From a virus (lineage: Duplodnaviria > Caudoviricetes): 24,992 nucleotides of DNA. Positions 316-20,152 of this stretch are shown piece by piece. Position 1 is the first letter of the stretch, and each line of letters opens with the position of its first letter. The stretch spans positions 1 through 24,992 of the IMG/VR virus record IMGVR_UViG_3300045902_000392, one strand, 5' to 3'. Under the pieces are notes generated by a model. It searched no databases. It worked only from the letters and a program-made list of their open reading frames with translations, and was not told the DNA's origin. A program made the translations under genes and the position numbers.

Positions 316-1356
316 ATGAAGGCTGGTTCCGCCACCGCACCCTACACAGATGCCGTTTCTGCAATTCGACACATCGAAAATGCAACGACGGCATCTTTTC
401 TCTTTGGTGCTGACCCTGAAAAAACATACCGGATATTGGCACAATTGGTCCACCCGGACAAATTGGCGACGCAACCCGCCGCGATGCAAAAACGGGGAAA
501 TGATGCATTCGCCAAACTCAGTCAAATGTACGCGGCACTCAACGGCAAGACCGCACCAGTCGCGCCCGTTGTCTTCGGAAAGTGGATCGTCGAAAATCCC
601 ATCACCAGCGGAGACATCGCAGACCTTTACCAGATCACGGCCAGCACCCACAAACGCGCCGTCCTGAAGATCGCCCGATCCCACGGCGACAACGATCTGA
701 TGGACCGGGAAATCGCCGCTCTCAAGACACTGCAAAGTGACACCCGCTCCGACAAATTCAAGCACTACATTCCCCAAGCCATCGACAGCTTCAAAGCATC
801 CAATCGCCGCGCGGTCGTTCTCAGTATGGCTGAAGCGGAACTCCGGGAAGGCGGATTCGAACCGATGGTGTCGCTCGAACAGATCACATCGATCAAAGGG
901 AAGCTGGACATGCGGCATGTTGTCTGGATGACAAACCGGCTCCTGTCGGCTTTAGGATTCGTCCACAACAACGGAATCGTTCATGGTGCCATTGTGCCGC
1001 CACACCTGATGTACGGGCCGCTCTCACACACTTTAATGCTGGTAGATTGGTGCTATTCTATTGATGTGACGGCACCGACACACATTCCAGCTATCGTAAA
1101 GAACTACAAAGCGTGGTACCCACGGGAAGTATTGCGAAAAGAAAAACCGACTCCCGCGACCGACATTTTCATGTGGGCCATGATGGTACGGAACACGGCG
1201 GAAACCATTCCAACCCGGTTCAAAGGGTTGCTTGATTGGTGTTTGGCCGATTCTGCAAAAACACGTCCACAAAACGCTTGGGACGTACAAGATAAATGGG
1301 GTAAATTGGCACAAGAAGAATTCAGAAAGCCACGTTACCTCAAACTCACTCTCTAA
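316..1356 (+). CDS. J-domain-like (HPD) plus Ser/Thr kinase-like protein
   Basis: YR.LAQLVHPDK J-domain motif; kinase subdomains VLKIA, E, HNNGIVHGAIVPPH, LVDW, YPREV, TDIF, RP. Confidence 0.8.
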   Translation: MKAGSATAPYTDAVSAIRHIENATTASFLFGADPEKTYRILAQLVHPDKLATQPAAMQKRGNDAFAKLSQMYAALNGKTAPVAPVVFGKWIVENPITSGDIADLYQITASTHKRAVLKIARSHGDNDLMDREIAALKTLQSDTRSDKFKHYIPQAIDSFKASNRRAVVLSMAEAELREGGFEPMVSLEQITSIKGKLDMRHVVWMTNRLLSALGFVHNNGIVHGAIVPPHLMYGPLSHTLMLVDWCYSIDVTAPTHIPAIVKNYKAWYPREVLRKEKPTPATDIFMWAMMVRNTAETIPTRFKGLLDWCLADSAKTRPQNAWDVQDKWGKLAQEEFRKPRYLKLTL

Positions 1357-1377
1357 CCAACAAGGAAAATCAAACAT

Positions 1378-2382
1378 ATGGGCGGAACATCATTCTCCCG
1401 CGACGATTACGATGCACGCGAAGACTACCGTAGCAGCACCGGCACAACGGCATTCACTTACGATGCCGATGTGCGGGCCGGAAAAGCCATCGGCGTACAC
1501 GATCAAATGAACCCCTTCGGGGTGAAGTATCGCGAATCCCGCGACTCCCCGGAACACCCGATCACCATCCCTATTGGCGTGTCGATGGATCTGACCGGCT
1601 CCATGTCCACGGTGCCGAAGATTTTCCAGAAGGCCCTTGCGAAGTTGATGGGTCACTTTCTCGAAGACAAGGCCAGCGGCAAGCGCTACCTTGGCGAAGG
1701 ATACCCGGCCATCTGTATCGCGGGGCACGACGACTACGCGGCGATGGGCGGCGTGCAAGGCACCGTTCAGGTGGGTCAGTTTGAATCCGGCCTTGAAATC
1801 GACGACGATCTTGGGCGGCTGTGGTTCACTGGCAATGGCGGCGGCGGCGAACCCCGTGAAAGCTACGAACTGATGCTATACTTCTTCGCCCGGCACACGG
1901 CAACTGACCATTGGGAGAAGCGCGGTCGCAAAGGCTTCCTGTTCCTCTTCGGGGATGAAAAGGCTTACGCCCCGGTGAAAGCCGAACAAGTCCGGGCGCT
2001 CTTCGGCGACCAAATCGACAAGGACATTCCGATTAAAGACATTGTGCGGGAATGCTCCGAACGCTGGCACATTTTCTATGTACAGCCAAACATGACTTCC
2101 CACTGGCAGGAAGAACGCATCCTCAATTTCTGGCGCGAAACCATCAACCCGGAACACGTTCTCTTGCTGGACGACCCGAACAAGATTTGCGAACTCATCG
2201 TCTCTACGGTCGCGCTGTTCGAAGAGAACGCGGATCTGGCTGACCTGACCGCCGATGGTATCGCCACCGGGCTGGACAAGGCTCTTGTGCCGCTCTCCCG
2301 CAAGGTTGGCGACATCAGTAAGTACGATGCGTCCGGTCTTCCGGCGACAACTTCGACCAGCGGTGGTACCGAACGCCTGTGA
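1378..2382 (+). CDS. VWA-domain protein
   Basis: MIDAS-like DLTGSM, GNGGGGE..ESYEL, FLFGDE; AAGGA RBS upstream. Confidence 0.8.
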   Translation: MGGTSFSRDDYDAREDYRSSTGTTAFTYDADVRAGKAIGVHDQMNPFGVKYRESRDSPEHPITIPIGVSMDLTGSMSTVPKIFQKALAKLMGHFLEDKASGKRYLGEGYPAICIAGHDDYAAMGGVQGTVQVGQFESGLEIDDDLGRLWFTGNGGGGEPRESYELMLYFFARHTATDHWEKRGRKGFLFLFGDEKAYAPVKAEQVRALFGDQIDKDIPIKDIVRECSERWHIFYVQPNMTSHWQEERILNFWRETINPEHVLLLDDPNKICELIVSTVALFEENADLADLTADGIATGLDKALVPLSRKVGDISKYDASGLPATTSTSGGTERL

Positions 2383-3656
2383 TTCCACACGCACACATTG
2401 TAGCCGGGCTGACCTTCGGCGACGAAGGCAAGGGAACGTCGGTGGACTACCTTGCCCGGCTACATGGTGCGAATCTTGTTGTACGATACAACGGCGGGCC
2501 GCAATGCGCTCACAATGTCGTATTGCCTGACGGACGCCACCATACGTTCGCTCAGTTCGGGTCCGCCTATTTTGTGGTCGGGGTGAAGACCTACCTGTCC
2601 CGTCACATGCTTGTAGAACCATTCGCCTTACTCAATGAGGCCAAGACTCTACAGTCGGTGAACGGCGATAATCCTTTCGACAGGATCATCATTGATGAGG
2701 ACTGTCTAGTCATCACTCCGTTCCACTGGCTCATGAATCGTTGCCGGGAATCCCTTCGCGGTGATAATCGGCACGGTTCATGCGGCCACGGCGTCGGAGA
2801 AGCCCGCGCCGATCTATTGTCCGGCAAAACATCCCTCTTCGTCCGCGATCTCAAAAACCCCGCAATCACCGAAACCAAACTACAGTTGATCCGTAGCGAA
2901 AAAATTGATGCAATCCGCCGCTACGACATCGATCCAGAAACTCTTGACAATCGATCCGTCGAGGCCATCTACAACGAAAACGTCCGCGCGCTGTGCCACA
3001 TCTACCGGGACTTCCGCTCCCGTTTCGAGTTTGGCACCACCGACCGGCTGAAAGAAATGCTCACCAAGTCGGTGTCGATCTTCGAAGGGGCACAAGGCGT
3101 CCTTCTGGACGAACGGTATGGGTTTGCTCCCTACTACACATGGACCGATACAACCTTCGGTAACGCCCATGAACTTCTGAACGACACCGGCGTCGAATCC
3201 ACACGTATCGGTGTGTTGCGTACCATCTTGACCCGCCACGGTGCCGGGCCGTTCCCTACCGAATCAGAACAGGTCCGCTATGACGGCGACCACAATACAA
3301 CGAACGAATGGCAGGGACGCTTCCGTTTCGGACACATGGACATGCTGATGCTGAAATATGCTATGCGCGCCGCCGGGCCGGTCGATTCACTCTTCCTGAC
3401 CCATCTGGACAAGATCCCCGGTATGATGACGCGGTACTGTGTGTCCTATCAAGACATGGACGCTATTCCCTTTGGTGTGTCTACGAATCGGCTCATGAAC
3501 GCGGAACCGAAACAATACGACTACACCAAAAACATAACGCGCACCCTAGAGGATCATCTAGGAGTGCGCGTCGGGTATACTTCGTCTGGTCCGACCTATC
3601 AGGAGAAGACTAATCTTCTCCCATCAATGTTCCAATCCGCAAAACCTCTGCTTTAA
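2379..3656 (+). CDS. purA: Divergent adenylosuccinate synthetase (PurA-like)
   Basis: FGDEGKG, RYNGG, FEGAQG.LLD..YG..PY.T, TRHGAGPFPTE, LTHLD, SGP; GTGA overlap with the VWA gene. Confidence 0.85.
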   Translation: MIPHAHIVAGLTFGDEGKGTSVDYLARLHGANLVVRYNGGPQCAHNVVLPDGRHHTFAQFGSAYFVVGVKTYLSRHMLVEPFALLNEAKTLQSVNGDNPFDRIIIDEDCLVITPFHWLMNRCRESLRGDNRHGSCGHGVGEARADLLSGKTSLFVRDLKNPAITETKLQLIRSEKIDAIRRYDIDPETLDNRSVEAIYNENVRALCHIYRDFRSRFEFGTTDRLKEMLTKSVSIFEGAQGVLLDERYGFAPYYTWTDTTFGNAHELLNDTGVESTRIGVLRTILTRHGAGPFPTESEQVRYDGDHNTTNEWQGRFRFGHMDMLMLKYAMRAAGPVDSLFLTHLDKIPGMMTRYCVSYQDMDAIPFGVSTNRLMNAEPKQYDYTKNITRTLEDHLGVRVGYTSSGPTYQEKTNLLPSMFQSAKPLL

Positions 3657-7115: not shown

Positions 7116-7192
7116 TGGAAGCCCCACCGGGACTCGAACCCGGATAGATCGGTTTAGAAGACCGATGCCTTATTCCGTTAGGCGATGGGGCC
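7116..7192 (-). tRNA. tRNA-Arg(TCT)
   Basis: Cloverleaf; TCGGT-CTTCTAA-ACCGA; encoded CCA. Confidence 0.9.
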
Positions 7193-7210
7193 GTGTATAA
7201 ATGCTCGAAG

Positions 7211-7435
7211 ATGACTGACAATCAGCGGGCCGCTCTACGGGAACTCATGAATACTCAACGCCACTACATTCTGGCCGCAACCCACTGCCCGGACCTTGTT
7301 CCAGACGCGCTACAGAAACTATGGTGTATCACGTCGATCATCGAAGACGGGATGGACATCAAACTCCATACGGCGGCGCAAATTGAAAAGACCGATGCCG
7401 AAGTTGCAGAGTTGAACCGAATGATGGTCCTTTGA
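7211..7435 (+). CDS. Small hypothetical protein
   Basis: ATG 7 nt after TATAAATG (7196-7203); fills the gap between two tRNAs. Confidence 0.55.
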   Translation: MTDNQRAALRELMNTQRHYILAATHCPDLVPDALQKLWCITSIIEDGMDIKLHTAAQIEKTDAEVAELNRMMVL

Positions 7436-7439
7436 AGGT

Positions 7440-7518
7440 TGGTGTCCCCGGTAGGATTCGAACCTACGACCTTCCGCTTAGGAGGCGGACGCTCTGTCCA
7501 GAACTGAGCTACGGGGAC
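7440..7518 (-). tRNA. tRNA-Arg(CCT)
   Basis: TCCGC-CTCCTAA-GCGGA; GGTTCGAATCC; CCA. Confidence 0.92.
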
Positions 7519-7588
7519 GCACGCGCTGGCGGCTCTTGTATTAGGGACCTTCGCTCTTACCTTCTGGAACGGTCAGGCAGACGGCCAG

Positions 7589-7990
7589 CTACTTCACGGT
7601 CGGGGCATCGGGCGGTCTGTCCGGGGTCCAAGTCTTGACCATCGGTTCCGCTGTGCGCATCCACACACTGTTGTTCACTCCTTTGGGTCCGTCCCACGGC
7701 GGTGAGCACCAGTACATGTATCCCTTTTCATCCACGCTGAAGGCTCCCGTGCCAACGGTGGAACACGCGCCCGGCCCGGCGGGTGGTAACGTCCTGTACA
7801 CCACATATGCTCCATCCGGGAGCGCTTCACAGTTCCTATCCGCGACACATACCACAATCGTGCCGGGGCGCGGTGTGATGATGCCGTATAGATTCCGCAC
7901 TTGATTCTTCATATCGGCGCGCGTCTGTGCGTACACAATTGCACCAAAGAGCAACAGTAAGCAACCGATGATGATGTCGCGGGTCTTCAT
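7589..7990 (-). CDS. Secreted/membrane-anchored hypothetical protein
   Basis: N-terminal hydrophobic signal-like segment; CTAAATA box upstream. Confidence 0.6.
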   Translation of the reverse strand: MKTRDIIIGCLLLLFGAIVYAQTRADMKNQVRNLYGIITPRPGTIVVCVADRNCEALPDGAYVVYRTLPPAGPGACSTVGTGAFSVDEKGYMYWCSPPWDGPKGVNNSVWMRTAEPMVKTWTPDRPPDAPTVK

Positions 7991-8006
7991 GAGCGAAACT
8001 ATTTAG

Positions 8007-8143
8007 GGGCCAGCAAATTGATCGGCCAAGGAATCTAGTCCGCTGACCTACCACTGGTCAACACCACCCACCAAAGGATGATGACGGGAATCGAACCCGC
8101 GCATGGCGGTTTGGGGCGATAACCTTGATCCTACGGCTGGCCC
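8007..8143 (-). ncRNA. YrlA-like Y RNA with circularly permuted tRNA body (Trp CCA-like loop)
   Basis: Terminal helix GGGCCAGC/GCTGGCCC, GGTTATC, T arm GCGGG-TTCGATT-CCCGT, looped acceptor CATCATCC/GGGTGGTG, then D arm GACC-AGTGGTA-GGTC; TGGTATGAT just upstream. Confidence 0.75.
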
Positions 8144-8182
8144 ATGTGAATATCATACCACACGCCCGCAATAAATAGAAGC

Positions 8183-8779
8183 ATGAAGGGCTTTCACCAG
8201 TTTCTCAAGGAATCCGTAGCCGACCATTCCACGGAGCACGAACTACCTATTCTGTTGGCGGACTTGCACGTGGTATCGATCAAGGTTCACAACTTCCACT
8301 GGAATGTGCGCGGTCCCTTCTTCGGCCCGCTTCACAAGCTGTTCGATGACATCTATGGTCACCTGAACGAACACATCGATGTGGTGGCCGAACGCATGCG
8401 TGCGCTTCGACTGGTCGCGCCCGGCTCCATGCAAGAGTTTCTGGACCTTGCTACGATCCAAGAAACCCCCGGCCAACTACAACCGGCAAAGAACATGCTC
8501 TTGGATCTTCACACCGATCTAATCGATCTCTCCGACCGGCTCAACACAATCATGAATGATGTGAACGACGAAGGCACCAAGAACATGATCGCCGATATGA
8601 TCGAATCCATCGACAAGGATGCTTGGTTCGTTCGCTCCCACGTCGCAACCGACGAAGAGTTGGAAGACAATGAACGGGAACCTGAACCGGAAGAAGAGCC
8701 TGAAGAGGACGATGACGCCGCCGATGATGAAGAGGCGGATGAGGAAGAAGACACTGACGAAGACGAAGAAGAGGAATGA
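8183..8779 (+). CDS. dps: Dps/ferritin-like DNA-protection protein with acidic tail
   Basis: HNFHWNVRGPFF..LH.LFD, D.VAERMRAL, DEGT, DK.AWFVRS. Confidence 0.92.
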   Translation: MKGFHQFLKESVADHSTEHELPILLADLHVVSIKVHNFHWNVRGPFFGPLHKLFDDIYGHLNEHIDVVAERMRALRLVAPGSMQEFLDLATIQETPGQLQPAKNMLLDLHTDLIDLSDRLNTIMNDVNDEGTKNMIADMIESIDKDAWFVRSHVATDEELEDNEREPEPEEEPEEDDDAADDEEADEEEDTDEDEEEE

Positions 8780-10068
8780 TGCTCACCTTCGGACAGTTTC
8801 TCTCAGAAGCGGTCAACAAGTCAGAGATTGAATCACTTCGAAAGGACGCCGCGATGTTCAGCAAAAACATCCGACGCATCAAATCTCCCCGCGATCTGTA
8901 CATAGTCGTCCAAGCCTATGACAAATGGCTGGCCCACATGGAAGGCATTCTCATGTCTGTCTTCTCCATCAGCGGATCACAAAAGCGCGAAAAGCCGCAT
9001 GAGACGTGGGAAGAAAAAGAGGTACGGACGAAGTGGTGGAACCTTCACATCGAAGGCACCGGCATCTTTTTTGTGGATTGGCCGCGCGGCTCCGACGTTA
9101 TCCGACCCGCCAACGGAGAGAAGTACAAGCAATTCCGCTACGACGGCAAAGAAGCGGAATGGACGAAGTACTACGCCGGATTCGACAAGGCGCGCAACAG
9201 CATCTACACGAAGTACGGTAAGCTGACCCGCGACATGTTCGCCGCGATGGATGAATGGCTGTCGCAAAAAGGCGACAGTCTGGAATCCTACCAGAAAAAG
9301 GAAGAGTTCAAGTTCGCCGATGTGCGTGTTCGTTTCCTGACCACGGATGAGACAGAACAACGCGACAAAGCCAAACTGAAAGAGTACCTTCACGCATTGA
9401 AAATCGCCACCGACCGGCTACGTCACTTTGGGTTTGGCACCATTCTCAAAGACCTGATCTTCGAAGCTGACTTCGCAACGAACGATTGGGCGGCGGGTAC
9501 ATACGATCACAACAACACCATTCGATCCACCATGTTCGGATACTCCGATCCGCGTGTCATCGCGCACGAAGTCGGACACCACGTCTATTCCCGTGTCCTC
9601 AAGCCTAGCCAGCGCGAAGGATGGATCAACCTCATCAAGAAGAATCAGGTGAGCTTCACGGACAGCGACATGCGATCCTTGCGCCGGGCCTATGATAAAG
9701 TCGTTGCCATCGCCTTGAAGGATATGGATGAGTGGCAGAATCAAATCAAAGGTGTGTGGGAGAATCTTCCCCGGTTCATCGACGACGCACAGGCGAAGGA
9801 CATGTACGTGACGTTCTGGAAGCAATACCAGCACGGTGGCGGCGACATGTACATCCCGTCCCCGTTCAAGAACGACATCAATGCGGCTTGGTCGAAATTT
9901 GAAAGGACAGCGGGAGTGCCGTTTGCCTATCACGTGCCGACCGGGTACTCAAACAAGAACCCGGAAGAAGCCTTCTGTGAGACGTTCTCCTACTACATCA
10001 TGGGGCGTGGGTTGACGCTGTTCATGGAGAACCAGTTTCTCCGCATCACCGGCTTCCCGGCTAAGTAG
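8776..10068 (+). CDS. Zincin metallopeptidase-like protein (lethal-factor-like), probable head-packaged
   Basis: IAHEVGHH and distal YS..NPEEAFCE.F..Y; ATGA overlap with dps. Confidence 0.65.
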   Translation: MMLTFGQFLSEAVNKSEIESLRKDAAMFSKNIRRIKSPRDLYIVVQAYDKWLAHMEGILMSVFSISGSQKREKPHETWEEKEVRTKWWNLHIEGTGIFFVDWPRGSDVIRPANGEKYKQFRYDGKEAEWTKYYAGFDKARNSIYTKYGKLTRDMFAAMDEWLSQKGDSLESYQKKEEFKFADVRVRFLTTDETEQRDKAKLKEYLHALKIATDRLRHFGFGTILKDLIFEADFATNDWAAGTYDHNNTIRSTMFGYSDPRVIAHEVGHHVYSRVLKPSQREGWINLIKKNQVSFTDSDMRSLRRAYDKVVAIALKDMDEWQNQIKGVWENLPRFIDDAQAKDMYVTFWKQYQHGGGDMYIPSPFKNDINAAWSKFERTAGVPFAYHVPTGYSNKNPEEAFCETFSYYIMGRGLTLFMENQFLRITGFPAK

Positions 10069-10276
10069 TGGCTTCTTCGCGCACCGGGCAGACTTTATCG
10101 TAGTCCGGCCAGATCGCAGACTCATTGCGAATCTGAATGCTGAACACCACCGGTACCTTCGGAAGTTCCGGCACGGGCCACTGACAACGACCAACCGTCA
10201 GTTTCGTCAAACGTTTGCGCCCGGCCATGTCCCATTTGGCCCATTTGCATCCGACACATCCCGGTTTGGTGTTCAT
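10061..10276 (-). CDS. Small Cys-containing protein, likely leaderless
   Basis: ATG 6 nt after TACAAT of TTGACA-N18-TACAAT. Confidence 0.55.
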   Translation of the reverse strand: MNTKPGCVGCKWAKWDMAGRKRLTKLTVGRCQWPVPELPKVPVVFSIQIRNESAIWPDYDKVCPVREEATT

Positions 10277-10318
10277 ACTCACATTGTAACTCGTTAAACC
10301 GAGTTCTGTCAAGAGATT

Positions 10319-10404
10319 TGGAGACGGCGGTGGGACTCGAACCCACATTGGACTTGCGTCCCCACCTTCGGAGGGTGGTGCCTGATCCTTTAGACTACGC
10401 CGTC
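10319..10404 (-). tRNA. tRNA-Arg(CCG) with long variable arm
   Basis: CCACC-CTCCGAA-GGTGG; variable hairpin GGAC-GCAA-GTCC; CCA. Confidence 0.85.
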
Positions 10405-10420
10405 ATACTGTAGAACCTGT

Positions 10421-11212
10421 TTAGGCCGCGCCCGGCAAACCGTTCGAAAGATCCACTTCGATGGGTCCGGGCCGGGTGATTGGTTCAACGGGCCGCTTCG
10501 CCCGATTCAATTTCCACCACCAGCCGCCCATGATGTGCGCCGGGGTCTTCCATACGCTGTGCATCTTCAGCGACAGCGTGTTTCCATGATACACCAGCGC
10601 CGGAATGTGCAACAACGACAACTGCAAGTAGCACATGTGAACACACTTGGGGTCCACGTCAATCGCGGTGACATGCATGCCGGTCTGGTAGTTGATCCCG
10701 GCTTCTTTCAGTTCGTGCGCCAGTCCGATCACGTTCGCCCCGGCACCGCATGCCGGTTCCTGAAGGGTGATGTATCCGTTCGTCTGAATCAACTCCCGCA
10801 TCTGGTCATCGATCAACATCCGGCCCATCATCCGGCACAATTCGTAGGGAGTGAAAAACTGGCCCGCGTACTTGTTGGTGATCTCCATTTCCCCGTAGAT
10901 CATTCCAAGAGCGTCATGCGGCTCCGCTTCGAGCGCCAAAGTCAGTTCCGCCAGCATCTTGGGAAAAAGTGCGATTTCTTCCGGCTGATAGAACTTGACG
11001 ATCTCCATGTATCGCTTTTCACGCTCTTCGGCCTGTGGAAGATCGACGGCATTGCTCATGCTAAGCGCCGCCATTTCAACGAAATCCGCGAAGACCTTGC
11101 GATAGTCTGTCCGGCGGGCCGCGTCATGGATCAGCTTGACGATGTTCTTTCGATGATGTGCGGGTGTAGACTGTTCAACGACCGGCGGGGCAGCGGCTTT
11201 CTTTTTCGCCAT
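10421..11212 (-). CDS. N6-adenine DNA methyltransferase-like SAM-binding protein
   Basis: GQFFTP, EPACGAG, IDVD, HGNTL; no NPPY/F motif seen. Confidence 0.8.
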   Translation of the reverse strand: MAKKKAAAPPVVEQSTPAHHRKNIVKLIHDAARRTDYRKVFADFVEMAALSMSNAVDLPQAEEREKRYMEIVKFYQPEEIALFPKMLAELTLALEAEPHDALGMIYGEMEITNKYAGQFFTPYELCRMMGRMLIDDQMRELIQTNGYITLQEPACGAGANVIGLAHELKEAGINYQTGMHVTAIDVDPKCVHMCYLQLSLLHIPALVYHGNTLSLKMHSVWKTPAHIMGGWWWKLNRAKRPVEPITRPGPIEVDLSNGLPGAA

Positions 11213-11268
11213 TTTTGTTCCAGTCTACCACGTTCTGAAAGCTACCCGAAGTCTAAACATCGAATGTC

Positions 11269-11604
11269 ATGACTACCACCAACAACATCACCATCGTCTC
11301 TCCGACGACTGGAAGTATCGTCCCGGAGTGGGTCACTGTAGAGGTAAAAATTACCGACGCTCCACTTCGCCACAACCTACAACTGTTCGTGTACTCCGCT
11401 GACGGCAAGTTCTATCCGCAACGCCTGCCGGTATACGATGCTAAGCGCGACGTGTATGTCATACAGTGCCGGGTCGGATTCACCGTGCCGAACGCACAAT
11501 CCTACACCATCGTAGCGATTTCGAACAAACGGGTATGGAACATTGACGCGGTGATTGATGACGATACCTTCGCATCAATTCCCGTGATCGTCACCCGTCA
11601 GTAA
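11269..11604 (+). CDS. Hypothetical beta-rich (Ig-like?) protein
   Basis: ITIVSP..GS.V pattern; CTAAACA box upstream. Confidence 0.6.
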   Translation: MTTTNNITIVSPTTGSIVPEWVTVEVKITDAPLRHNLQLFVYSADGKFYPQRLPVYDAKRDVYVIQCRVGFTVPNAQSYTIVAISNKRVWNIDAVIDDDTFASIPVIVTRQ

Positions 11605-11608
11605 GGAT

Positions 11609-11683
11609 TGGCCGCTTCTGTCGGGATCGAACCGACCTCTGTGGGTTTTCAGTCCACCGCTAATCCGTCTCAGCTAAGAAGCG
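11609..11683 (-). tRNA. tRNA-Phe(GAA)
   Basis: GTGGA-CTGAAAA-CCCAC; CCA. Confidence 0.85.
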
Positions 11684-11686
11684 ATT

Positions 11687-11732
11687 TGCGACTTTCGCGT
11701 CCTTGAGGAACGAGAAAGTCGCATTTTCTTTT
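11687..11732 (+). terminator. Hairpin plus T tract
   Basis: TGCGACTTTC...GAAAGTCGCA followed by TTTTCTTTT. Confidence 0.5.
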
Positions 11733-11807
11733 GGTGGCTGGTCGCGGTTACGATCCGCGCTCTATGGTTTTTCAGACCATCGCTTTCACCAGATTAGCTT
11801 ACCAGCC
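11732..11807 (-). tRNA. tRNA-Phe(GAA) with atypical T loop
   Basis: ATGGT-CTGAAAA-ACCAT; T loop ATCGTAA; CCA. Confidence 0.8.
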
Positions 11808-12123
11808 ATTGTCGTGGACTGTGTTGTTCAGCGTGACAATTGGCACACAACAAGTCGCACTTCTCAAGTTCTTCCCGAACGCGATCCCAACTTTTGTTGG
11901 TGCCGTCCGAAACACGAAACTCTTTGATCTTTGGGTCCCGGTGATGAAACTGAAGTGCTCCCATATTGCGGTTGTATCCACATCTTTGACACCGACCACC
12001 TTTGTACTCTACCGCCATCCGTTTTCTTTTTAACCGAAAAGCAGTAACCCGACATGTACCACAAATACTACCTTTGGTAGAATCGCGGCGCTCGAAATCT
12101 TTTTCACACACCGAACATATCAC
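11794..12123 (-). CDS. HNH endonuclease
   Basis: CQRCGY...LQFHHRDP..K.F...ELEKC.LLCANCH.E.H. Confidence 0.85.
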   Translation of the reverse strand: MICSVCEKDFERRDSTKGSICGTCRVTAFRLKRKRMAVEYKGGRCQRCGYNRNMGALQFHHRDPKIKEFRVSDGTNKSWDRVREELEKCDLLCANCHAEQHSPRQWLVS

Positions 12124-12139
12124 ATCGGTATGTAGAAAT

Positions 12140-12214
12140 TGGCTCTCCCGGCAGGACTCGAACCTGCGACTATTCGATTAACAGTCGAACGCTCTACCAC
12201 TGAGCTACGGGAGA
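12140..12214 (-). tRNA. tRNA-Asn(GTT)
   Basis: TTCGA-CTGTTAA-TCGAA; CCA. Confidence 0.93.
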
Positions 12215-12266
12215 ATGAAACTTGACATATACATACTGATTGACCGTTGTTCGGTCAAGAGTGACT

Positions 12267-12902
12267 ATGAAACTACTACTTCTGTTAGCCACGACCTTGT
12301 TGTCGGCTGTGGCTCAGTGCAAGTATCCCGGAGCGACGTTGACCAGTGACATCTACTGGTCGGCACAGCCACCCGCTGTCCGCGCGCTTCGGAATCCTTC
12401 TGGAAACGTGTCGCCTAGTGAAATGCAAACGAAGGCATTGGCACTGGCGACGCAAGGCTACAAAATCGATGTGCCGATCATGGTATGGGGATGGAACCCT
12501 GTTTGCATGATGGGCATGCGAAAAGACTAAGGCTACACTTGGGTGCCTTCTGCCCTTCAGCCGAATATCGTGATTGCTCCCGGCTTGGACATGCCCGGTG
12601 TCCCGGCTTATGATCCGAAGAATCCGCCGCCGGGGTCCATTATGGTTTCTATCGATGCCAAGGACTATCTGCCGTTTGACCCGCCGCCGGTTGTCGTACC
12701 ACCGGTCAACACCAAGGCCCTTGTGGGTAAGTGCTTCGACGGAAGCGCCATCTGTGGACTTGGACCGGGTGCGGCCACTGCCGATCTTCGAAAGGCCGCT
12801 GGATTGACCAGCGGGAAAGTCGTCACAGAGAACGGTGTCAAGTACATCTTCAAGTCTGTGGACAACCCGTTCGGATCATCAGCGTGGTTCGAGAAGCAAT
12901 AA
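12267..12902 (+). pseudogene. Secreted Pro-rich protein interrupted by one in-frame TAA (12528-12530)
   Basis: Signal peptide; ...MMGMRKD*GYTWVPSALQP... continues in the same frame; terminator follows. Confidence 0.7.
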
Positions 12903-12923
12903 CAAGATCTGTTCGTCAACTTT

Positions 12924-12950
12924 GGCCGGGCCTTCGGGTCCGGCCTTTTT
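12924..12950 (+). terminator. Intrinsic terminator with CUUCGG loop
   Basis: GGCCGGGCC-TTCG-GGTCCGGCC-TTTTT. Confidence 0.9.
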
Positions 12951-13038
12951 ATTTCGCGCCACGGTGACCGCCCTCACCCTCTTTGGACTGACTGTCTGGT
13001 GACCCAAGCCGTGCCCGGCGGCGGTCCCGTGGAAACTT

Positions 13039-13112
13039 TGGCAGGGGTGGAGGGAATCGAACCCCCATGATCGGTTTTGGAGACCGAGGCTTTACCATTA
13101 AGCTACACCCCT
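13039..13112 (-). tRNA. tRNA-Trp(CCA)
   Basis: TCGGT-CTCCAAA-ACCGA; CCA. Confidence 0.92.
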
Positions 13113-13119
13113 ATGGAAT

Positions 13120-13254
13120 TGGGGACCGTCCTTAACCGGGTTCTTTAACAACTATGGCCCCGATCATCCGTGGAACTTGAGGAAGGCGTCACCCTCTGCC
13201 TTCTTGATCTAACAAGTCCTCTGTTTCAATGCCGCTCGAAAGCGATTGACGGTC
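13120..13254 (-). ncRNA. Unknown ~135-nt structured RNA with acceptor-like stem and CCA end
   Basis: GACCGTC...GACGGTC-C-CCA; internal hairpins GAAGGC/GCCTTC and CGCT-TTCG-AGCG. Confidence 0.5.
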
Positions 13255-13262
13255 ATAAACTT

Positions 13263-13336
13263 TGGCACTCCGGGTAGGATTTGAACCCACATCTAACAGG
13301 TTTGGAGTCTGTCGCTTTACGTTAAGCTACCGGAGC
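13263..13336 (-). tRNA. tRNA-Trp(CCA), short D loop
   Basis: ACAGA-CTCCAAA-CCTGT; CCA. Confidence 0.8.
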
Positions 13337-13341
13337 ATATT

Positions 13342-13427
13342 GCAGCGATCTGACCGGACTCGAACCGGCGCACGGATGAGCTAAGCTCACCACCCAAGGA
13401 TCTACCAACTGAACTACAGATCACTGC
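13342..13427 (-). ncRNA. tRNA-like element with abnormal anticodon arm (TTA at apex), no CCA
   Basis: 11-bp terminal stem, D-like GTTCAGTTGGTAGATC, T arm GCCGG-TTCGAGT-CCGGT, arm GGTGAGC-TTA-GCTCATC. Confidence 0.6.
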
Positions 13428-13433
13428 AAACTT

Positions 13434-13508
13434 TGGAGCGGGCGGCGGCACTCGAAGCCGCATGGTCGGGGTGGAAGCCCGATACTCTTCCTCTTAAGCT
13501 ACGCCCGC
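13434..13508 (-). tRNA. tRNA-Gly(TCC)
   Basis: TCGGG-CTTCCAC-CCCGA; GCG..CGC-TCCA. Confidence 0.88.
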
Positions 13509-13512
13509 GTGA

Positions 13513-13589
13513 TGGTTGCCCCGGTCGGATTCGAACCGACGACCTCTTCCATGTCAAGGAAGCGCGCTGACCAACTGCGCTACGGGACA
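13513..13589 (-). tRNA. tRNA-Val(GAC)
   Basis: CTTCC-TTGACAT-GGAAG; CCA. Confidence 0.92.
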
Positions 13590-13594
13590 ATGAT

Positions 13595-13670
13595 TGGTTG
13601 CGGAAGTGGGATTCGAACCCACGACCTCTAGCTTATGAGGCTAGCAAGCTGACCACTGCTCTATTCCGCA
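13595..13670 (-). tRNA. tRNA-Met(CAT), initiator-like body without the three G-C anticodon pairs
   Basis: CTAGC-CTCATAA-GCTAG; CCA. Confidence 0.88.
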
Positions 13671-13681
13671 AACTTGTTCGA

Positions 13682-13828
13682 CTAGTGGCCGATCTCTTCG
13701 ATGATGCCGATGATTTCGGATGCGATCAACACCGTAGCGGGCCAGAACCCACCGGGGATCATGTACATCAAAGCGTAACCCGCGATCCGCACCGCACTCT
13801 TGATGAAGCTGATGGTTTGATGACTCAT
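13682..13828 (-). CDS. Small hydrophobic phage protein (48 aa)
   Basis: MSHQTISFIKSAVRIAGY...SEIIGIIEE; CTAAACA box 5 nt upstream. Confidence 0.65.
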   Translation of the reverse strand: MSHQTISFIKSAVRIAGYALMYMIPGGFWPATVLIASEIIGIIEEIGH

Positions 13829-13851
13829 GCCACTGTTTAGTCGGAGAACTT

Positions 13852-13928
13852 TGGAGCACCGGGCGGAACTCGAATCCGCTAAGATAGGTTTTGCAGACCT
13901 ACGCTTCGACCACTTCAGCATCCGGTGC
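13852..13928 (-). tRNA. tRNA-Cys(GCA)
   Basis: TAGGT-CTGCAAA-ACCTA; TCCA. Confidence 0.88.
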
Positions 13929-13941
13929 ATGTTGGGAACTT

Positions 13942-14068
13942 TGGTCGGGAAGGTTGGATTCGAACCAACGACAACGCGCTTATGATGCGATAACCTTCAT
14001 CAGTCGGCTGTCTCCAGCAATTTGGCGACGAAGACCTTTACGTGCTCTATCCACTGAGCTACTTCCCG
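13942..14068 (-). ncRNA. tRNA(CAT) with ~50-nt Y-RNA-like module inserted in the anticodon stem
   Basis: Normal acceptor, D and T arms plus CCA; insert CTTCGTCGCCAAATTGCTG-GAGA-CAGCCGACTGATGAAGGTTAT; removing it gives CGCGC-ATCATAA-GCGCG. Confidence 0.8.
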
Positions 14069-14235
14069 ATGCTTTGCTGATGTGCTTCTACTTCTTCTAC
14101 GATGTCTTCATCGGCTTGAATCTGCATTAACATTTCGCGCCAGCACCAACCACAAAACATGTCGGTGTTGATGACATCCTCAATGCGAAAATCTCTCCAG
14201 TTATGACCACATGATGTCGGTGACGATTCAGGCAT
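14059..14235 (-). CDS. Small hypothetical protein (58 aa, CxxC)
   Basis: Manually read ORF MPESSPTSCGHNW...FCGWCW...; fills the spacer between two RNAs. Confidence 0.4.
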   Translation of the reverse strand: MPESSPTSCGHNWRDFRIEDVINTDMFCGWCWREMLMQIQADEDIVEEVEAHQQSIGK

Positions 14236-14237
14236 TT

Positions 14238-14366
14238 TGGTGGACCGGGTTGGATTCGAACCAACGACCTACGGCTTAATAGGCGATAACCTTCATCAGT
14301 CGGCTGTCACCAGCAATTTGGGCGACGAAGACTTTTTACGTTGCTCTGCCACTGAGCTACCGATCC
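14238..14366 (-). ncRNA. tRNA(ATT) with the same Y-RNA-like insert
   Basis: Near-identical insert with GTGA tetraloop; removing it gives ACGGC-CTATTAA-GCCGT; CCA. Confidence 0.8.
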
Positions 14367-14369
14367 ATA

Positions 14370-14445
14370 GTGAACAGCAAGTTGTTCGGCGAACGGGTTT
14401 TTGTCAATTAACAGTTGAGATAACCATCCACCTATCGGCTGTCAC
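14370..14445 (-). ncRNA. Minimal Y-like RNA presenting only an Asn(GTT) anticodon stem-loop
   Basis: GTGACAGC-C-GA...GGTTATC-TCAA-CTGTTAA-TTGA...TT-GCTGTTCAC. Confidence 0.7.
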
Positions 14446-14452
14446 TGAAACT

Positions 14453-14653
14453 CTATCTTATCACTTCACGAACCAACCCCAAAACTCCTAGCCGGGACTC
14501 TTTCCCGTCTTCTCCGATGACTACTACATCAGCATCTTCGGTGTCGAAGTAGTGATTGAAGCGGTCTGGCAAACGGGCGGGAATCTCTTCCAGCGTATCC
14601 CATTCACCTTCGGCCTGAACGCCGGACGGAGTGAGTATTCGGAACTTGGTCAT
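14453..14653 (-). CDS. Small hypothetical protein
   Basis: 66-aa ORF filling the gap between two Y-like RNAs. Confidence 0.55.
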   Translation of the reverse strand: MTKFRILTPSGVQAEGEWDTLEEIPARLPDRFNHYFDTEDADVVVIGEDGKESRLGVLGLVREVIR

Positions 14654-14661
14654 ATTTGAAA

Positions 14662-14803
14662 GGAAGCGGCAAGCAAGGTATCGGCGACGGAGATTTTAGG
14701 CGTCCTACCATTAGACGACGCGCTCCGAAGAACGCGATGGGATTCGAACCCACATCTCCCCTTTTGCAGAGGGATAACCATCACCTATCGGCTTGCCACT
14801 TCC
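14662..14803 (-). ncRNA. YrlA-like Y RNA with circularly permuted tRNA-Cys(GCA) body
   Basis: GGAAGTGGCAAGC-C-GA/TT-GCTTGCCGCTTCC; GGTTATC; CCT-CTGCAAA-AGG; T arm; acceptor CGCGTTC-TTCG-GAGCGCG; then D arm. Confidence 0.8.
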
Positions 14804-14931
14804 TTTGTTCTCCCCAACTGAATCCATCTTACCACGATGGACCGGGGAGTCATTGTTCCTAAACAGGCTCTTCAATTGTCAATGATCTGTGCGCCGTTGC
14901 CGATTACGCGGGCGGCGCGGACTGCAAAACT

Positions 14932-15008
14932 TGGTGAGCCGGGTGGGATTCGAACCCACAACCTTCCGATTAAAAGTCGGCTACTCTAGTCCGTTGAGTT
15001 ACCGGCCC
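14932..15008 (-). tRNA. tRNA-Lys(TTT)
   Basis: CCGA-CTTTTAA-TCGG; CCA. Confidence 0.9.
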
Positions 15009-15100
15009 ATATGAATGGACCGGGCCAACCGCTTGTTAGGCGGCGACCGATCCGGCAACTCGTTTCTCGAACAAAATCAATTCCATTTCCTTTTTCCTTT

Positions 15101-15178
15101 TGGTGAGCCGGGAGGGACTTGAACCCCCAACCTTCTGCTTAAGAGGCAGCTACTCTAGTCCTATTGAGTTACCGGCCC
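15101..15178 (-). tRNA. tRNA-Lys(CTT)
   Basis: CTGC-CTCTTAA-GCAG; CCA. Confidence 0.9.
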
Positions 15179-15184
15179 AAAATT

Positions 15185-15274
15185 TGGCTCCGGGAGTAGG
15201 GTTCGAACCTACATATGGGCATAAAGCCACGCCGCATTAACAGTGCGGTGCCTTACCAGTTAGGCGATCCCGGA
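15185..15274 (-). tRNA. tRNA-Asn(GTT) with long variable arm
   Basis: CCGCA-CTGTTAA-TGCGG; 19-nt variable region; GCCA. Confidence 0.85.
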
Positions 15275-15293
15275 ATAGACAACTTACGTTGTT

Positions 15294-15369
15294 TGGTGAA
15301 CCCCGTGGGCAACGATCCCACAACCTTCCGGTTAAGAGCCGGATGCTCTGCCAATTGAGCTAGAGGTTC
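15294..15369 (-). tRNA. tRNA-Lys(CTT) with atypical T loop
   Basis: TCCGG-CTCTTAA-CCGGA; T loop ATCGTTG; CCA. Confidence 0.85.
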
Positions 15370-15371
15370 AT

Positions 15372-15449
15372 TGGTAGTCCCGGTAGGAATCGAACCTACA
15401 ACGGCCTGTGTGTAAGACAGGTGCCAGTACCAGTTCCGGCGACAGGACC
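15372..15449 (-). tRNA. tRNA-Val(TAC)
   Basis: CCTGT-CTTACAC-ACAGG; CCA. Confidence 0.87.
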
Positions 15450-15454
15450 ATGTT

Positions 15455-15529
15455 TGGAGCGGGTAACGGGATTCGAACCCGTGTCTCAGCGTTGGCAACG
15501 CCGCGCTTTACCGACTAAGCTATACCCGC
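15455..15529 (-). tRNA. tRNA-Gly(GCC)
   Basis: CGGCG-TTGCCAA-CGCTG; TCCA. Confidence 0.92.
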
Positions 15530-15620
15530 ATTTTGCAGCGGCGACTTCGACATGCACATCCCGTTTAGCCGCATCACAGGACACCAGCGCGCGTTTCTCA
15601 CGCATCCGGCGTCGATAGTT

Positions 15621-15708
15621 TGGAACACCCGGCGGGACTCGAACCCACATAGAGACTTTCGCCTCACACGTTCGTAGCGTGTTGCCTGATCCATTAGGCT
15701 ACGGGTGC
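15621..15708 (-). tRNA. tRNA-Arg(ACG) with long variable arm
   Basis: ACACG-CTACGAA-CGTGT; variable hairpin GAGGC-GAAA-GTCTC; CCA. Confidence 0.87.
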
Positions 15709-15715
15709 ATAGCGT

Positions 15716-15806
15716 GGTAAGCAATTGGATTGGAACGGGTCAACCACCGAAGTGGTCTTGGGATCGAACCAAGTTATACCAGATAACCGTTACCGGTCGG
15801 CTTACC
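15716..15806 (-). ncRNA. Y-like RNA carrying only a T arm and looped acceptor minihelix
   Basis: GGTAAGC-C-GA...GGTTATC...CTTGG-TTCGATC-CCAAG-ACCAC-TTCG-GTGGT...TT-GCTTACC. Confidence 0.7.
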
Positions 15807-19157: not shown

Positions 19158-19493
19158 TTATCGTAGCAGTCGGCAAAGTTCGATGAACACCACATCCTTG
19201 GCGCGTTCGAGTTCGGACAGTTCTTCGTAGGGGACCATGCTTGGATGCTGTTTCGCGGCTTCGTCCTTGACCGGCCCATACGTCCAGCCTTTCGCCGCCT
19301 TGTCTTGCATCCACCAGTCATGCGTTTGCTTCGGCGTCAAATCCGGGTTCTCCAGATGGAACTTCACACCACCGATGAATGTTGTCTTCTGATCGTCTGT
19401 GGCTAGGTCCCACTCCGGGTAGTCTTTACCAAACTCCAGATTCAAGGCGCGGATCACGGCATAGATGTGCCGCGCAATCGCTTCGATAGTCAT
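19158..19493 (-). CDS. RyR-domain protein
   Basis: HD.WM..K...GWTYG..KD...KQHPSMVPYEEL.E.E.AKD; ATGA overlap with the upstream gene. Confidence 0.85.
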   Translation of the reverse strand: MTIEAIARHIYAVIRALNLEFGKDYPEWDLATDDQKTTFIGGVKFHLENPDLTPKQTHDWWMQDKAAKGWTYGPVKDEAAKQHPSMVPYEELSELERAKDVVFIELCRLLR

Positions 19494-20152
19494 TTGCCAG
19501 CCTTCTTCGCTTTCTTGTACACCACGATGCTTTGCAGATAGTTGACCAGCGCATCCATTTGGAACACGGTCATATTGCTGTACGCTTCGACCAACTCTTC
19601 GTCTTCTTCGGACGCCGCCGCGTATATCTCTTCGTAGGTTTTCTGGTAGGTGTGTGCTAATAGCGCACGCTGTTCCATCGTCAGAGACTCCCGCCACTTC
19701 TCCCGGCTAGGTGCTGGCAACTTCGGCTTGCGATGCAAACAGATGTCATCGATCACGCCATCGATATGATGCCGGATCTTGGTCAATTCGGAGTCTTCCA
19801 CTGGCCGGACGACGCGGGGCGGCTTGGGCTTCAGGGATCGGATGTGATCGTATAGCCGGGTGACGGTCTTCTTGTCCAGCGGAACCCCTTTGGTCAAGAG
19901 CCGGGCGACTGATCCAACCCCGATACACCCTTGCTCATCGCACGCGCGGGCGCGCTCCACAACATCCGCCGGAAATGGCTTTTCGTCGCTGAAGGGTAAA
20001 CGAGTAATCCGATTGTGGTGGATGAGGAAGTCGATGACCCACTGTTTCTGTTGGGTCGCTGTGCTGTTTTTGCGGTACCACGACAGCGCTTCAGAGACGG
20101 AACCGGTGAACGTGTCGCCGCGAAAGAATGGTTCGTCGCGAACCTTTTTCAT
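19490..20152 (-). CDS. Hypothetical phage protein
   Basis: Long ORF in a packed run; AL.WY and LVEAYS motifs. Confidence 0.7.
   Translation of the reverse strand: MKKVRDEPFFRGDTFTGSVSEALSWYRKNSTATQQKQWVIDFLIHHNRITRLPFSDEKPFPADVVERARACDEQGCIGVGSVARLLTKGVPLDKKTVTRLYDHIRSLKPKPPRVVRPVEDSELTKIRHHIDGVIDDICLHRKPKLPAPSREKWRESLTMEQRALLAHTYQKTYEEIYAAASEEDEELVEAYSNMTVFQMDALVNYLQSIVVYKKAKKAGK

Follow-up and report, generated by a model that had tools for sequence, protein, structure and literature searches.

The closest described counterparts of the RNAs analysed here are the YrlA RNAs (Rfam RF02553). In the available portions of Chen 2014 (PMC4201824), YrlA is defined by a GNCGAAN0-1G motif, a YUAY element, a T arm that precedes the D arm, and a closed acceptor. 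These portions, together with those available of Wang 2018 (bioRxiv 10.1101/312249), describe a handle with free ends, an acceptor closed by a loop, no anticodon loop, conserved D and T arms, linkage to Ro60, and occurrence in phages. According to the published view, YrlA has neither a CCA end nor an anticodon loop and was born from dimeric tRNA transcripts. As for the Ro60 site, the available part of a review (PMC4726728) describes it as a bulged-C helix and reports UUAUC as a loop motif in animal Y RNAs.

Several other systems share features with the RNAs described below, which carry a Y RNA handle within a body whose arms follow in tRNA order (tRNA-order RNAs). Vertebrate Y RNAs and nematode stem-bulge RNAs have the same bulged-C Ro60 helix and UUAUC after the upper stem; in that part of the review, however, they are described without a tRNA domain, and the UUAUC match is a resemblance that does not imply homology. 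The b7a-tRNA (Burroughs and Aravind 2016, as described in the available portions of Wang 2018) is likewise a predicted tRNA-like RNA, occasionally found beside Ro60. It is defined beside Band-7 genes and may overlap with the tRNA-order class; no Band-7 gene was found near tRNA-order RNAs in the 5 genomes tested. Permuted and intron-bearing tRNAs of algae and archaea likewise have an extra anticodon-stem helix whose removal would restore a tRNA, but they use a bulge-helix-bulge and a splicing endonuclease, neither of which recurs in the tRNA-order RNAs or the phage records searched. No description of the tRNA-order layout was found in the literature searched, which did not take in Burroughs and Aravind 2016, Sim and Wolin 2018, and Sim et al. 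2020, or in the available portions of PMC7824862, PMC8421152, PMC10272220, and PMC9569102.

The window, i.e., the whole stretch of 24,992 nt that was analysed, is a 25-kb virus record with T4-like RNase H, ribonucleotide reductase, and other large-phage genes. Six elements in it (A to F, Table 1) share the handle motif. Chance does not explain the elements: one handle motif was counted 3 times against 0.12 expected, with none of 100 shuffles reaching 3. The ordinary tRNAs of the surrounding array include Met CAU, two Asn GUU, Cys GCA, and three Lys, and the anticodon loops of A, C, and D equal those of ordinary tRNAs in the same array. Some array tRNAs are longer than usual (15185-15274, 13344-13424, 15621-15708, and 10319-10404), among them Asn and Arg with enlarged variable arms and a His that Rfam scores low, at 28 bits. 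Elsewhere in the window, a kinase, an uncharacterised 334-aa protein, and an adenylosuccinate synthetase-like gene lie in a row at 316-3656 (plus strand), a ferritin-like gene at 8183-8779, and an RyR-domain gene at 19158-19697.

Table 1. Handle-bearing elements and the tRNA array of the window.
Feature	Positions	Strand	Description
A	13942..14068	-	tRNA-order Y RNA, 127 nt; CAU anticodon loop (13984-13982), A73, encoded CCA
Handle of A	13990..14040	-	51-nt insert separating tRNA positions 28 and 29; consists of an upper helix, a GAGA-closed helix with the bulged C, and a GGUUAU linker
B	14238..14366	-	tRNA-order Y RNA, 129 nt; AUU anticodon loop (14280-14278), A73, encoded CCA
Handle of B	14285..14338	-	54 nt between tRNA positions 29 and 30; closed by GUGA
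C	14662..14803	-	YrlA-order Y RNA with free ends at the handle, a GCA anticodon-like loop, and a UUCG-closed acceptor
D	14368..14448	-	Short Y RNA; handle and hairpin with GUU anticodon-like loop, without tRNA body
E	8007..8143	-	YrlA-order Y RNA; acceptor closed by a loop
F	15716..15806	-	Handle, T arm, UUCG-closed acceptor; without D arm
tRNA array	7116..15708	-	20 ordinary tRNA genes (21 ARAGORN calls, one being part of C); A and B lie inside

Both A and B have a 7-bp acceptor, a D arm, and a T arm. From 5' to 3', the acceptor and the D arm are followed by two or three bases of the anticodon stem; then come the handle (3' strand, GNRA loop, 5' strand), GGUUAUC, the remaining anticodon arm with a 7-nt loop, the T arm, A73, and CCA. 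The initial annotation had already pointed out that the 3' strand of the handle comes ahead of the 5' strand, and the joints are indeed GCTG-GAGA-CAGC in A (14018-14007) and GCTG-GTGA-CAGC in B (14314-14303). Its placement of the free ends at the acceptor stem with CCA is confirmed in the sequence of both elements, and its opposite arrangement for C was found as listed in Table 1. Read from the letters, tRNA order, free CCA-bearing acceptor ends, and a handle at 28/29 or 29/30 make up a predicted three-way junction. The two inserts are nearly identical, as had been stated (the same at 49 of 54 aligned columns), and so, besides the inserts, are the D arms and T arms. The acceptor stems and anticodon arms differ, again as the initial annotation had it. 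A combines CAU with A73, like Met tRNAs, and the body of B is nearest to the phage's own Lys and Arg tRNAs (0.69).

The claim that the breakpoints differ by one base also holds, with one qualification. For all five anticodon pairs to be Watson-Crick, A must be broken after 28 and B after 29; if G-U is allowed, however, A also closes after 29, and A and B alone are therefore compatible with one shared site. In predicted folds, the three-way-junction model exceeds the minimum by 6.0 kcal/mol in A and by 10.0 kcal/mol in B, and no handle pair probability is higher than 0.19; folding A or B as single sequences gives other structures. Because the model fold lies above the predicted minimum, it would need protein or tertiary help.

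At the DNA level, a sequencing contig that is a possible source of this DNA covers 13900-14480 without a difference, and 8 sequencing runs (two RNA-labelled, probably DNA) contain no joint that skips the insert of A or B. The 161-nt spacer between A and B (14072-14232) is absent from two related phage records (G001 and G002) and is skipped by one contig of one sequencing run; it is an optional insert in the array. A promoter and terminator scan gave nothing above shuffles. A hammerhead reading of the CUGAUGA letters was dropped, since the letters are not conserved in the tRNA-order family. ARAGORN misses A and B without the intron option and miscalls them as Asp and Ile with introns allowed; tRNA finders thus miscall genes of this type.

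In comparison with YrlA, A and B share the GNCGA handle motif, the YUAY linker, the conserved D and T arms, the Ro60 linkage, and the occurrence in phages. They differ in that their arms follow tRNA order, the handle is closed by a loop, the acceptor ends are free and carry an encoded CCA, and a 7-nt anticodon loop is present; the arm order and free handle ends of YrlA are found in C and E. UUAU occurs within GGUUAUC in all six elements of the window. None of them reaches the 69-bit Rfam threshold for YrlA: the best score is 25.4 bits for C, with 17.6 bits across the joint of D and B, and no other Rfam family exceeds its cut-off for A to F. A covariance model of the tRNA-order family (R1) scores A at 119 bits, A being one of its training members. 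A further parallel is the M. smegmatis YrlA, which according to the available portions of Chen 2014 (PMC4201824) is cut by RNase P and receives CCA, so that its acceptor ends become free, as in A and B. That molecule, however, is two pieces made by processing, whereas A and B encode the same end state in one chain.

Three related phage records (G001, G002, and G003) are 83-99% identical to the window over collinear blocks (83-93% for G001 and G002). The handle elements are kept at 87-100% in them, with compensatory changes; E lies beyond the stretch compared in G003, C is altered in G003, and D is 96-98% identical in all three. The handle of B differs, with compensatory changes, in all three relatives, so the near-identity of the A and B inserts is local to this genome; the handle of B was probably copied from A recently. 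Several paralogues with different loops coexist in one phage and are unchanged in the three relatives. The window has no Ro60 gene; Ro60 is encoded by G001 (559 aa) and G002, about 58 kb from the array, and G002 also has an Rnl2-type ligase. Among cultured phages, the only match is 41 nt of tRNA-Lys in 2 records.

Further handle-like RNAs were seen in these phages and in another one. Between C and D, a structured non-coding stretch (14480-14650, minus strand) is 87-95% identical in the three relatives and has a degenerate handle-like motif and no Rfam match; it may comprise a seventh Y-like RNA and, next to it, a second RNA. In G001, a second tRNA cluster (C1:37700-38300) has a tRNA-order handle RNA of about 102 nt with an encoded CCA and without an anticodon arm. 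A 462-kb phage (G004, C1:171500-191000) has 11 handle motifs, mostly in YrlA order and with varied anticodon-like loops, as well as Ro60 and two RNA ligases.

The wider family was collected by pattern scans of viral, metagenome, and genome collections with the motif letters and a 22/23-nt spacer fixed; the invariance of both is thus by construction. The scans gave at least 424 distinct matches, of which at least 265 are in tRNA order, at least 94 in YrlA order, and at least 65 unclassified, and the tRNA-order sequences form at least 86 clusters at 85%. A covariance model search also recovers variants of the family. A loose viral pattern (about 5600 matches) was set aside as mostly chance. According to record titles among the matches listed, the carriers include Nostocales, other cyanobacteria, Chloroflexia, Polyangiaceae, Chthonomonadaceae, Abditibacterium, and Gemmatimonadales. 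The papers on the Anabaena trn operon and on TrcR were checked for a link, and neither names Ro60 or TROVE in its main text.

Covariation supports the proposed structure throughout. For 49 of the 86 representatives (among the matches listed), RNAalifold on a MAFFT alignment gives the acceptor, the D arm, both handle helices, the distal anticodon hairpin, and the T arm. With pairs added by hand, 95% of cells pair, against 38-48% in slid controls; 26 of 36 pairs change on both sides, which is matched by none of 500 shuffles. For the split anticodon stem (27/28 with 43/42), the share of paired cells in the same 49 is 99%, and every helix of the family covaries. The bulged-C helix with its GNCGA-type 5' strand is present (helix 5 pairs in 97.6% of cells), and the pairs flanking its core covary, being Watson-Crick in 78 and 69 of 86 representatives among the matches listed, with shuffle maxima of 66 and 54.

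Regarding the remaining parts, the loops are tRNA-like, with U33 in 71/77 and purine 37 in 71/77 representatives among the matches listed (9/86 lack the 7-nt loop geometry and were left out). The anticodon arm is shortened in 11/86, among the matches listed, so the loop is not needed by all members. On the same basis, CCA is encoded in 31/86 representatives and not in 55/86, C73 occurs in 46/86, and positions -1 and 73 form a Watson-Crick pair in 65/86. The idea of C73 as an anti-charging mark was rejected, since C73 mostly closes an eighth acceptor pair. Some members (e.g., L306:456 and L385:5845) have a long variable arm as in class II tRNAs, which suggests that the handle has been repeatedly transferred between tRNA bodies.

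The family is closely linked to Ro60. Of ten neighbouring proteins tested, 8 carry TROVE plus vWA_Ro60, one is RtcB, and one is an RNA ligase. A profile built from six of these proteins places Ro60 on the same strand in 65/65 bacterial genome loci among the matches listed, and in 64 of them it lies downstream at a distance of no more than 1.5 kb; most of these loci are from related Nostocales. Another 15 of the 80 genome loci had been left out because, once duplicates were removed, they added no tRNA-order element. Across 101 genomes sampled evenly from one phylum, with 34 candidates scored per genome, the RNA was found in 12/16 Ro60-bearing genomes vs 0/85 others, and all 12 have a strong Ro60 match on the same contig. 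In the window, the inserts have GC-C-GA opposite UU-GC with the bulged C, and UUAUC, which is the anatomy of a Ro60 site, and the handle of A and B is a predicted Ro60 docking site. One Nostoc array (L366:6430-6465) also has a handle-like hairpin after its last unit, just ahead of the Ro60 start codon.

The tRNA-order RNAs are thus real, conserved, and widespread; they form a variant of the Y RNA family outside YrlA as defined and are probably not introns. The suggestion of the initial annotation that A and B are circular permutations of Y RNAs is backed by structure, covariation, and Ro60 linkage, and A and B are very probably Y RNAs in tRNA order.

Since many units lie in tandem, the register in which they are read was examined for 85 adjacent unit pairs in 64 loci, among the matches listed. 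Of the 77 informative pairs, 68 show better acceptor pairing within a unit, 9 show no difference, and none shows worse pairing, a result that unit calling partly favours. The 27/28 stem, which was not used in unit calling, pairs within units in 55/56 and across units in 6/56. The upper handle is less decisive (49 within, 16 equal, and 20 across). At the joint from B to A, 7 pairs form within vs 3 across. Judged by this pairing, tRNA order is the true register in tandem arrays.

This bears on published cyanobacterial predictions. The 'YrlA with long acceptor stem' of Chen 2014 (supplementary text 2 and Table S1, PMC4201824, as far as available) comes from the same loci, with the same motifs upstream of Ro60, and appears to span two tRNA-order units. 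In the supplementary alignment of that paper, the Calothrix, Stanieria, and Gloeocapsa entries run from handle to CCA to spacer to the next D arm. The Nostoc punctiforme entry of Table S1 (available portion) has 171 nt and ends 104 nt before Ro60, which fits a cross-unit span in the array of another strain. On these alignments, the published predictions appear to join two tandem units, i.e., to be in the wrong register. Among viral YrlA-order copies with a full acceptor, N73-CCA lies inside the closing loop in 15/63 of the matches listed, as expected if such copies came from tRNA-order units or tRNAs. YrlA-order copies such as C and E may have arisen from two tandem tRNA-order units read across their joint.

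As for tRNA identity, the anticodons are diverse, with 30 kinds among 62 tRNA-order members (among the matches listed). The discriminator fits the anticodon in 14/62 (shuffled 11.1, p 0.17) vs 282/332 real tRNAs of the same loci. Because C73 mostly belongs to the eighth acceptor pair, the test was repeated on the 19 CCA-encoding members, where it fits in 6/19 (shuffled 4.2). A34 occurs in 11/62 members vs 8/332 real tRNAs. Neither A and B nor the family are thus canonical tRNAs, the anticodon stem being interrupted and the acceptor identity uncoupled from the anticodon.

The preferred reading, to which we give about an even chance, is that A and B are unspliced, Ro60-bound tRNA mimics whose exposed anticodon loops bait host tRNA-cutting nucleases. 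Its parts differ in strength: the handle is quite likely retained rather than excised, while for nuclease bait as the main role the balance is roughly level overall. A and B would be released from the array transcript in the same way as the tRNAs around them, by RNase P cleavage and trimming of the 3' end, and phage-encoded Ro60 would bind the bulged-C helix of the handle. In the most speculative step, the tRNA body and its exchangeable loop might engage anticodon nucleases or other tRNA-binding enzymes; Ro60 might thereby be brought to tRNA-engaging enzymes and phage translation spared. A loop that is kept tRNA-like while the triplet varies, together with the match of the A, C, and D loops to array tRNAs, fits bait for anticodon nucleases. 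YrlA has itself been proposed as a competitive inhibitor of an anticodon nuclease (Hughes 2020, PMC7790460, available portions).

It is possible, if rather unlikely, that the tRNA body of such an unspliced Ro60-bound Y RNA is only a stable scaffold that tethers Ro60 to an exoribonuclease (e.g., PNPase) or gates the Ro60 cavity, with the anticodon loop as a relic. A scaffold or tether role was tested in Deinococcus and partly in Salmonella (Chen 2014, PMC4201824; Wang 2018, bioRxiv 10.1101/312249; available portions of both), and members with short or absent anticodon arms are compatible with it. A relic loop, however, does not account well for the retention of U33 and purine 37, for the five-pair stem geometry kept in 60/64 of the matches listed, or for the differing loops that stay unchanged across the three relatives.

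Less probable is that the intact RNA is aminoacylated and, controlled by Ro60, serves as a charged tRNA or donates its amino acid. The A73-CCA on a 7-bp acceptor in A and B, the Met-like combination in A, and the processing of the M. smegmatis YrlA described above would suit charging. The G-U third acceptor pair is an alanine signal, and 59/265 tRNA-order sequences, among the matches listed, combine it with an 8-bp acceptor and an encoded CCA, whatever the anticodon. Nevertheless, most representatives encode no CCA, the acceptor identity does not follow the anticodon, and on the ribosome an arm of 50 nt at 28/29 would be likely to cause a clash. The charging suggested in the initial annotation would in any case not extend to the whole family.

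A very doubtful alternative is that the handle is a protein-excised intron at 28/29, with Ro60 holding a latent tRNA until a nuclease excises the handle and a ligase joins the halves; the possibility of such processing was raised in Wang 2018 (bioRxiv 10.1101/312249). On paper, removal of the handle restores five Watson-Crick pairs in 60/64 cases, with the break after 28 in 53/64, and ARAGORN accepts 63/64 joined forms (all among the matches listed). However, the break slips against the fixed motif, being needed after 29 in 6/64 of the matches listed and in B, and a strict bulge-helix-bulge lies near the junction in only 4/64 of them, with none in B and that of A inside the handle. Ligases point both ways: RtcB is present in 5/5 bacterial carriers tested and adjacent in 1, but also in 10/14 control genomes, and the Rnl2-type ligase of G002 is set against the lack of RtcB and of a splicing endonuclease (PF01974, 0/4) in 4 phage records, two of which are <90% complete. 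The products would be mismatched tRNAs, for which the ordinary Met and Asn genes leave no need; many of the acceptors are eight pairs long, and A34 is frequent. Moreover, the CCA-ending copy in G001 has no anticodon arm to restore, the arms shortened in part of the family are similar in this respect, and the same handle occurs in D, which is without a tRNA body. The slipping break, the enzymes missing from the phage records, and the armless copy thus disfavour the small tRNA intron with RtcB-type ligation proposed in the initial annotation. No Rfam catalytic-core match to a group I intron was found for the inserts, which measure 51 and 54 nt. The general form of this idea has an equally slim prospect: the handle would be a Ro60-gated excisable module, bacteria and phages would store latent tRNAs activated by nuclease and ligase at 28/29, and YrlA would stem from tandem copies. 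If true, it would be a protein-spliced tRNA intron, a kind unknown in bacteria.

Decayed tRNA genes or an assembly artefact, to which the ARAGORN misses and the odd AUU anticodon of B might point, are hardly credible, as conservation in three relatives with compensatory changes refutes decay, the layout is common to at least 86 clusters, and contigs confirm the DNA.

One phage thus holds tRNA-order, YrlA-order, and minimal forms of the Y RNA side by side. The tRNA-order layout offers a simpler route to YrlA than the published one, namely, a handle entering one tRNA, tandem duplication, and reading across the joint. In addition, the tRNA-order units of cultured Nostocales provide a concrete test system for what the tRNA module of Y RNAs does, whether charging, nuclease bait, or latent tRNA.
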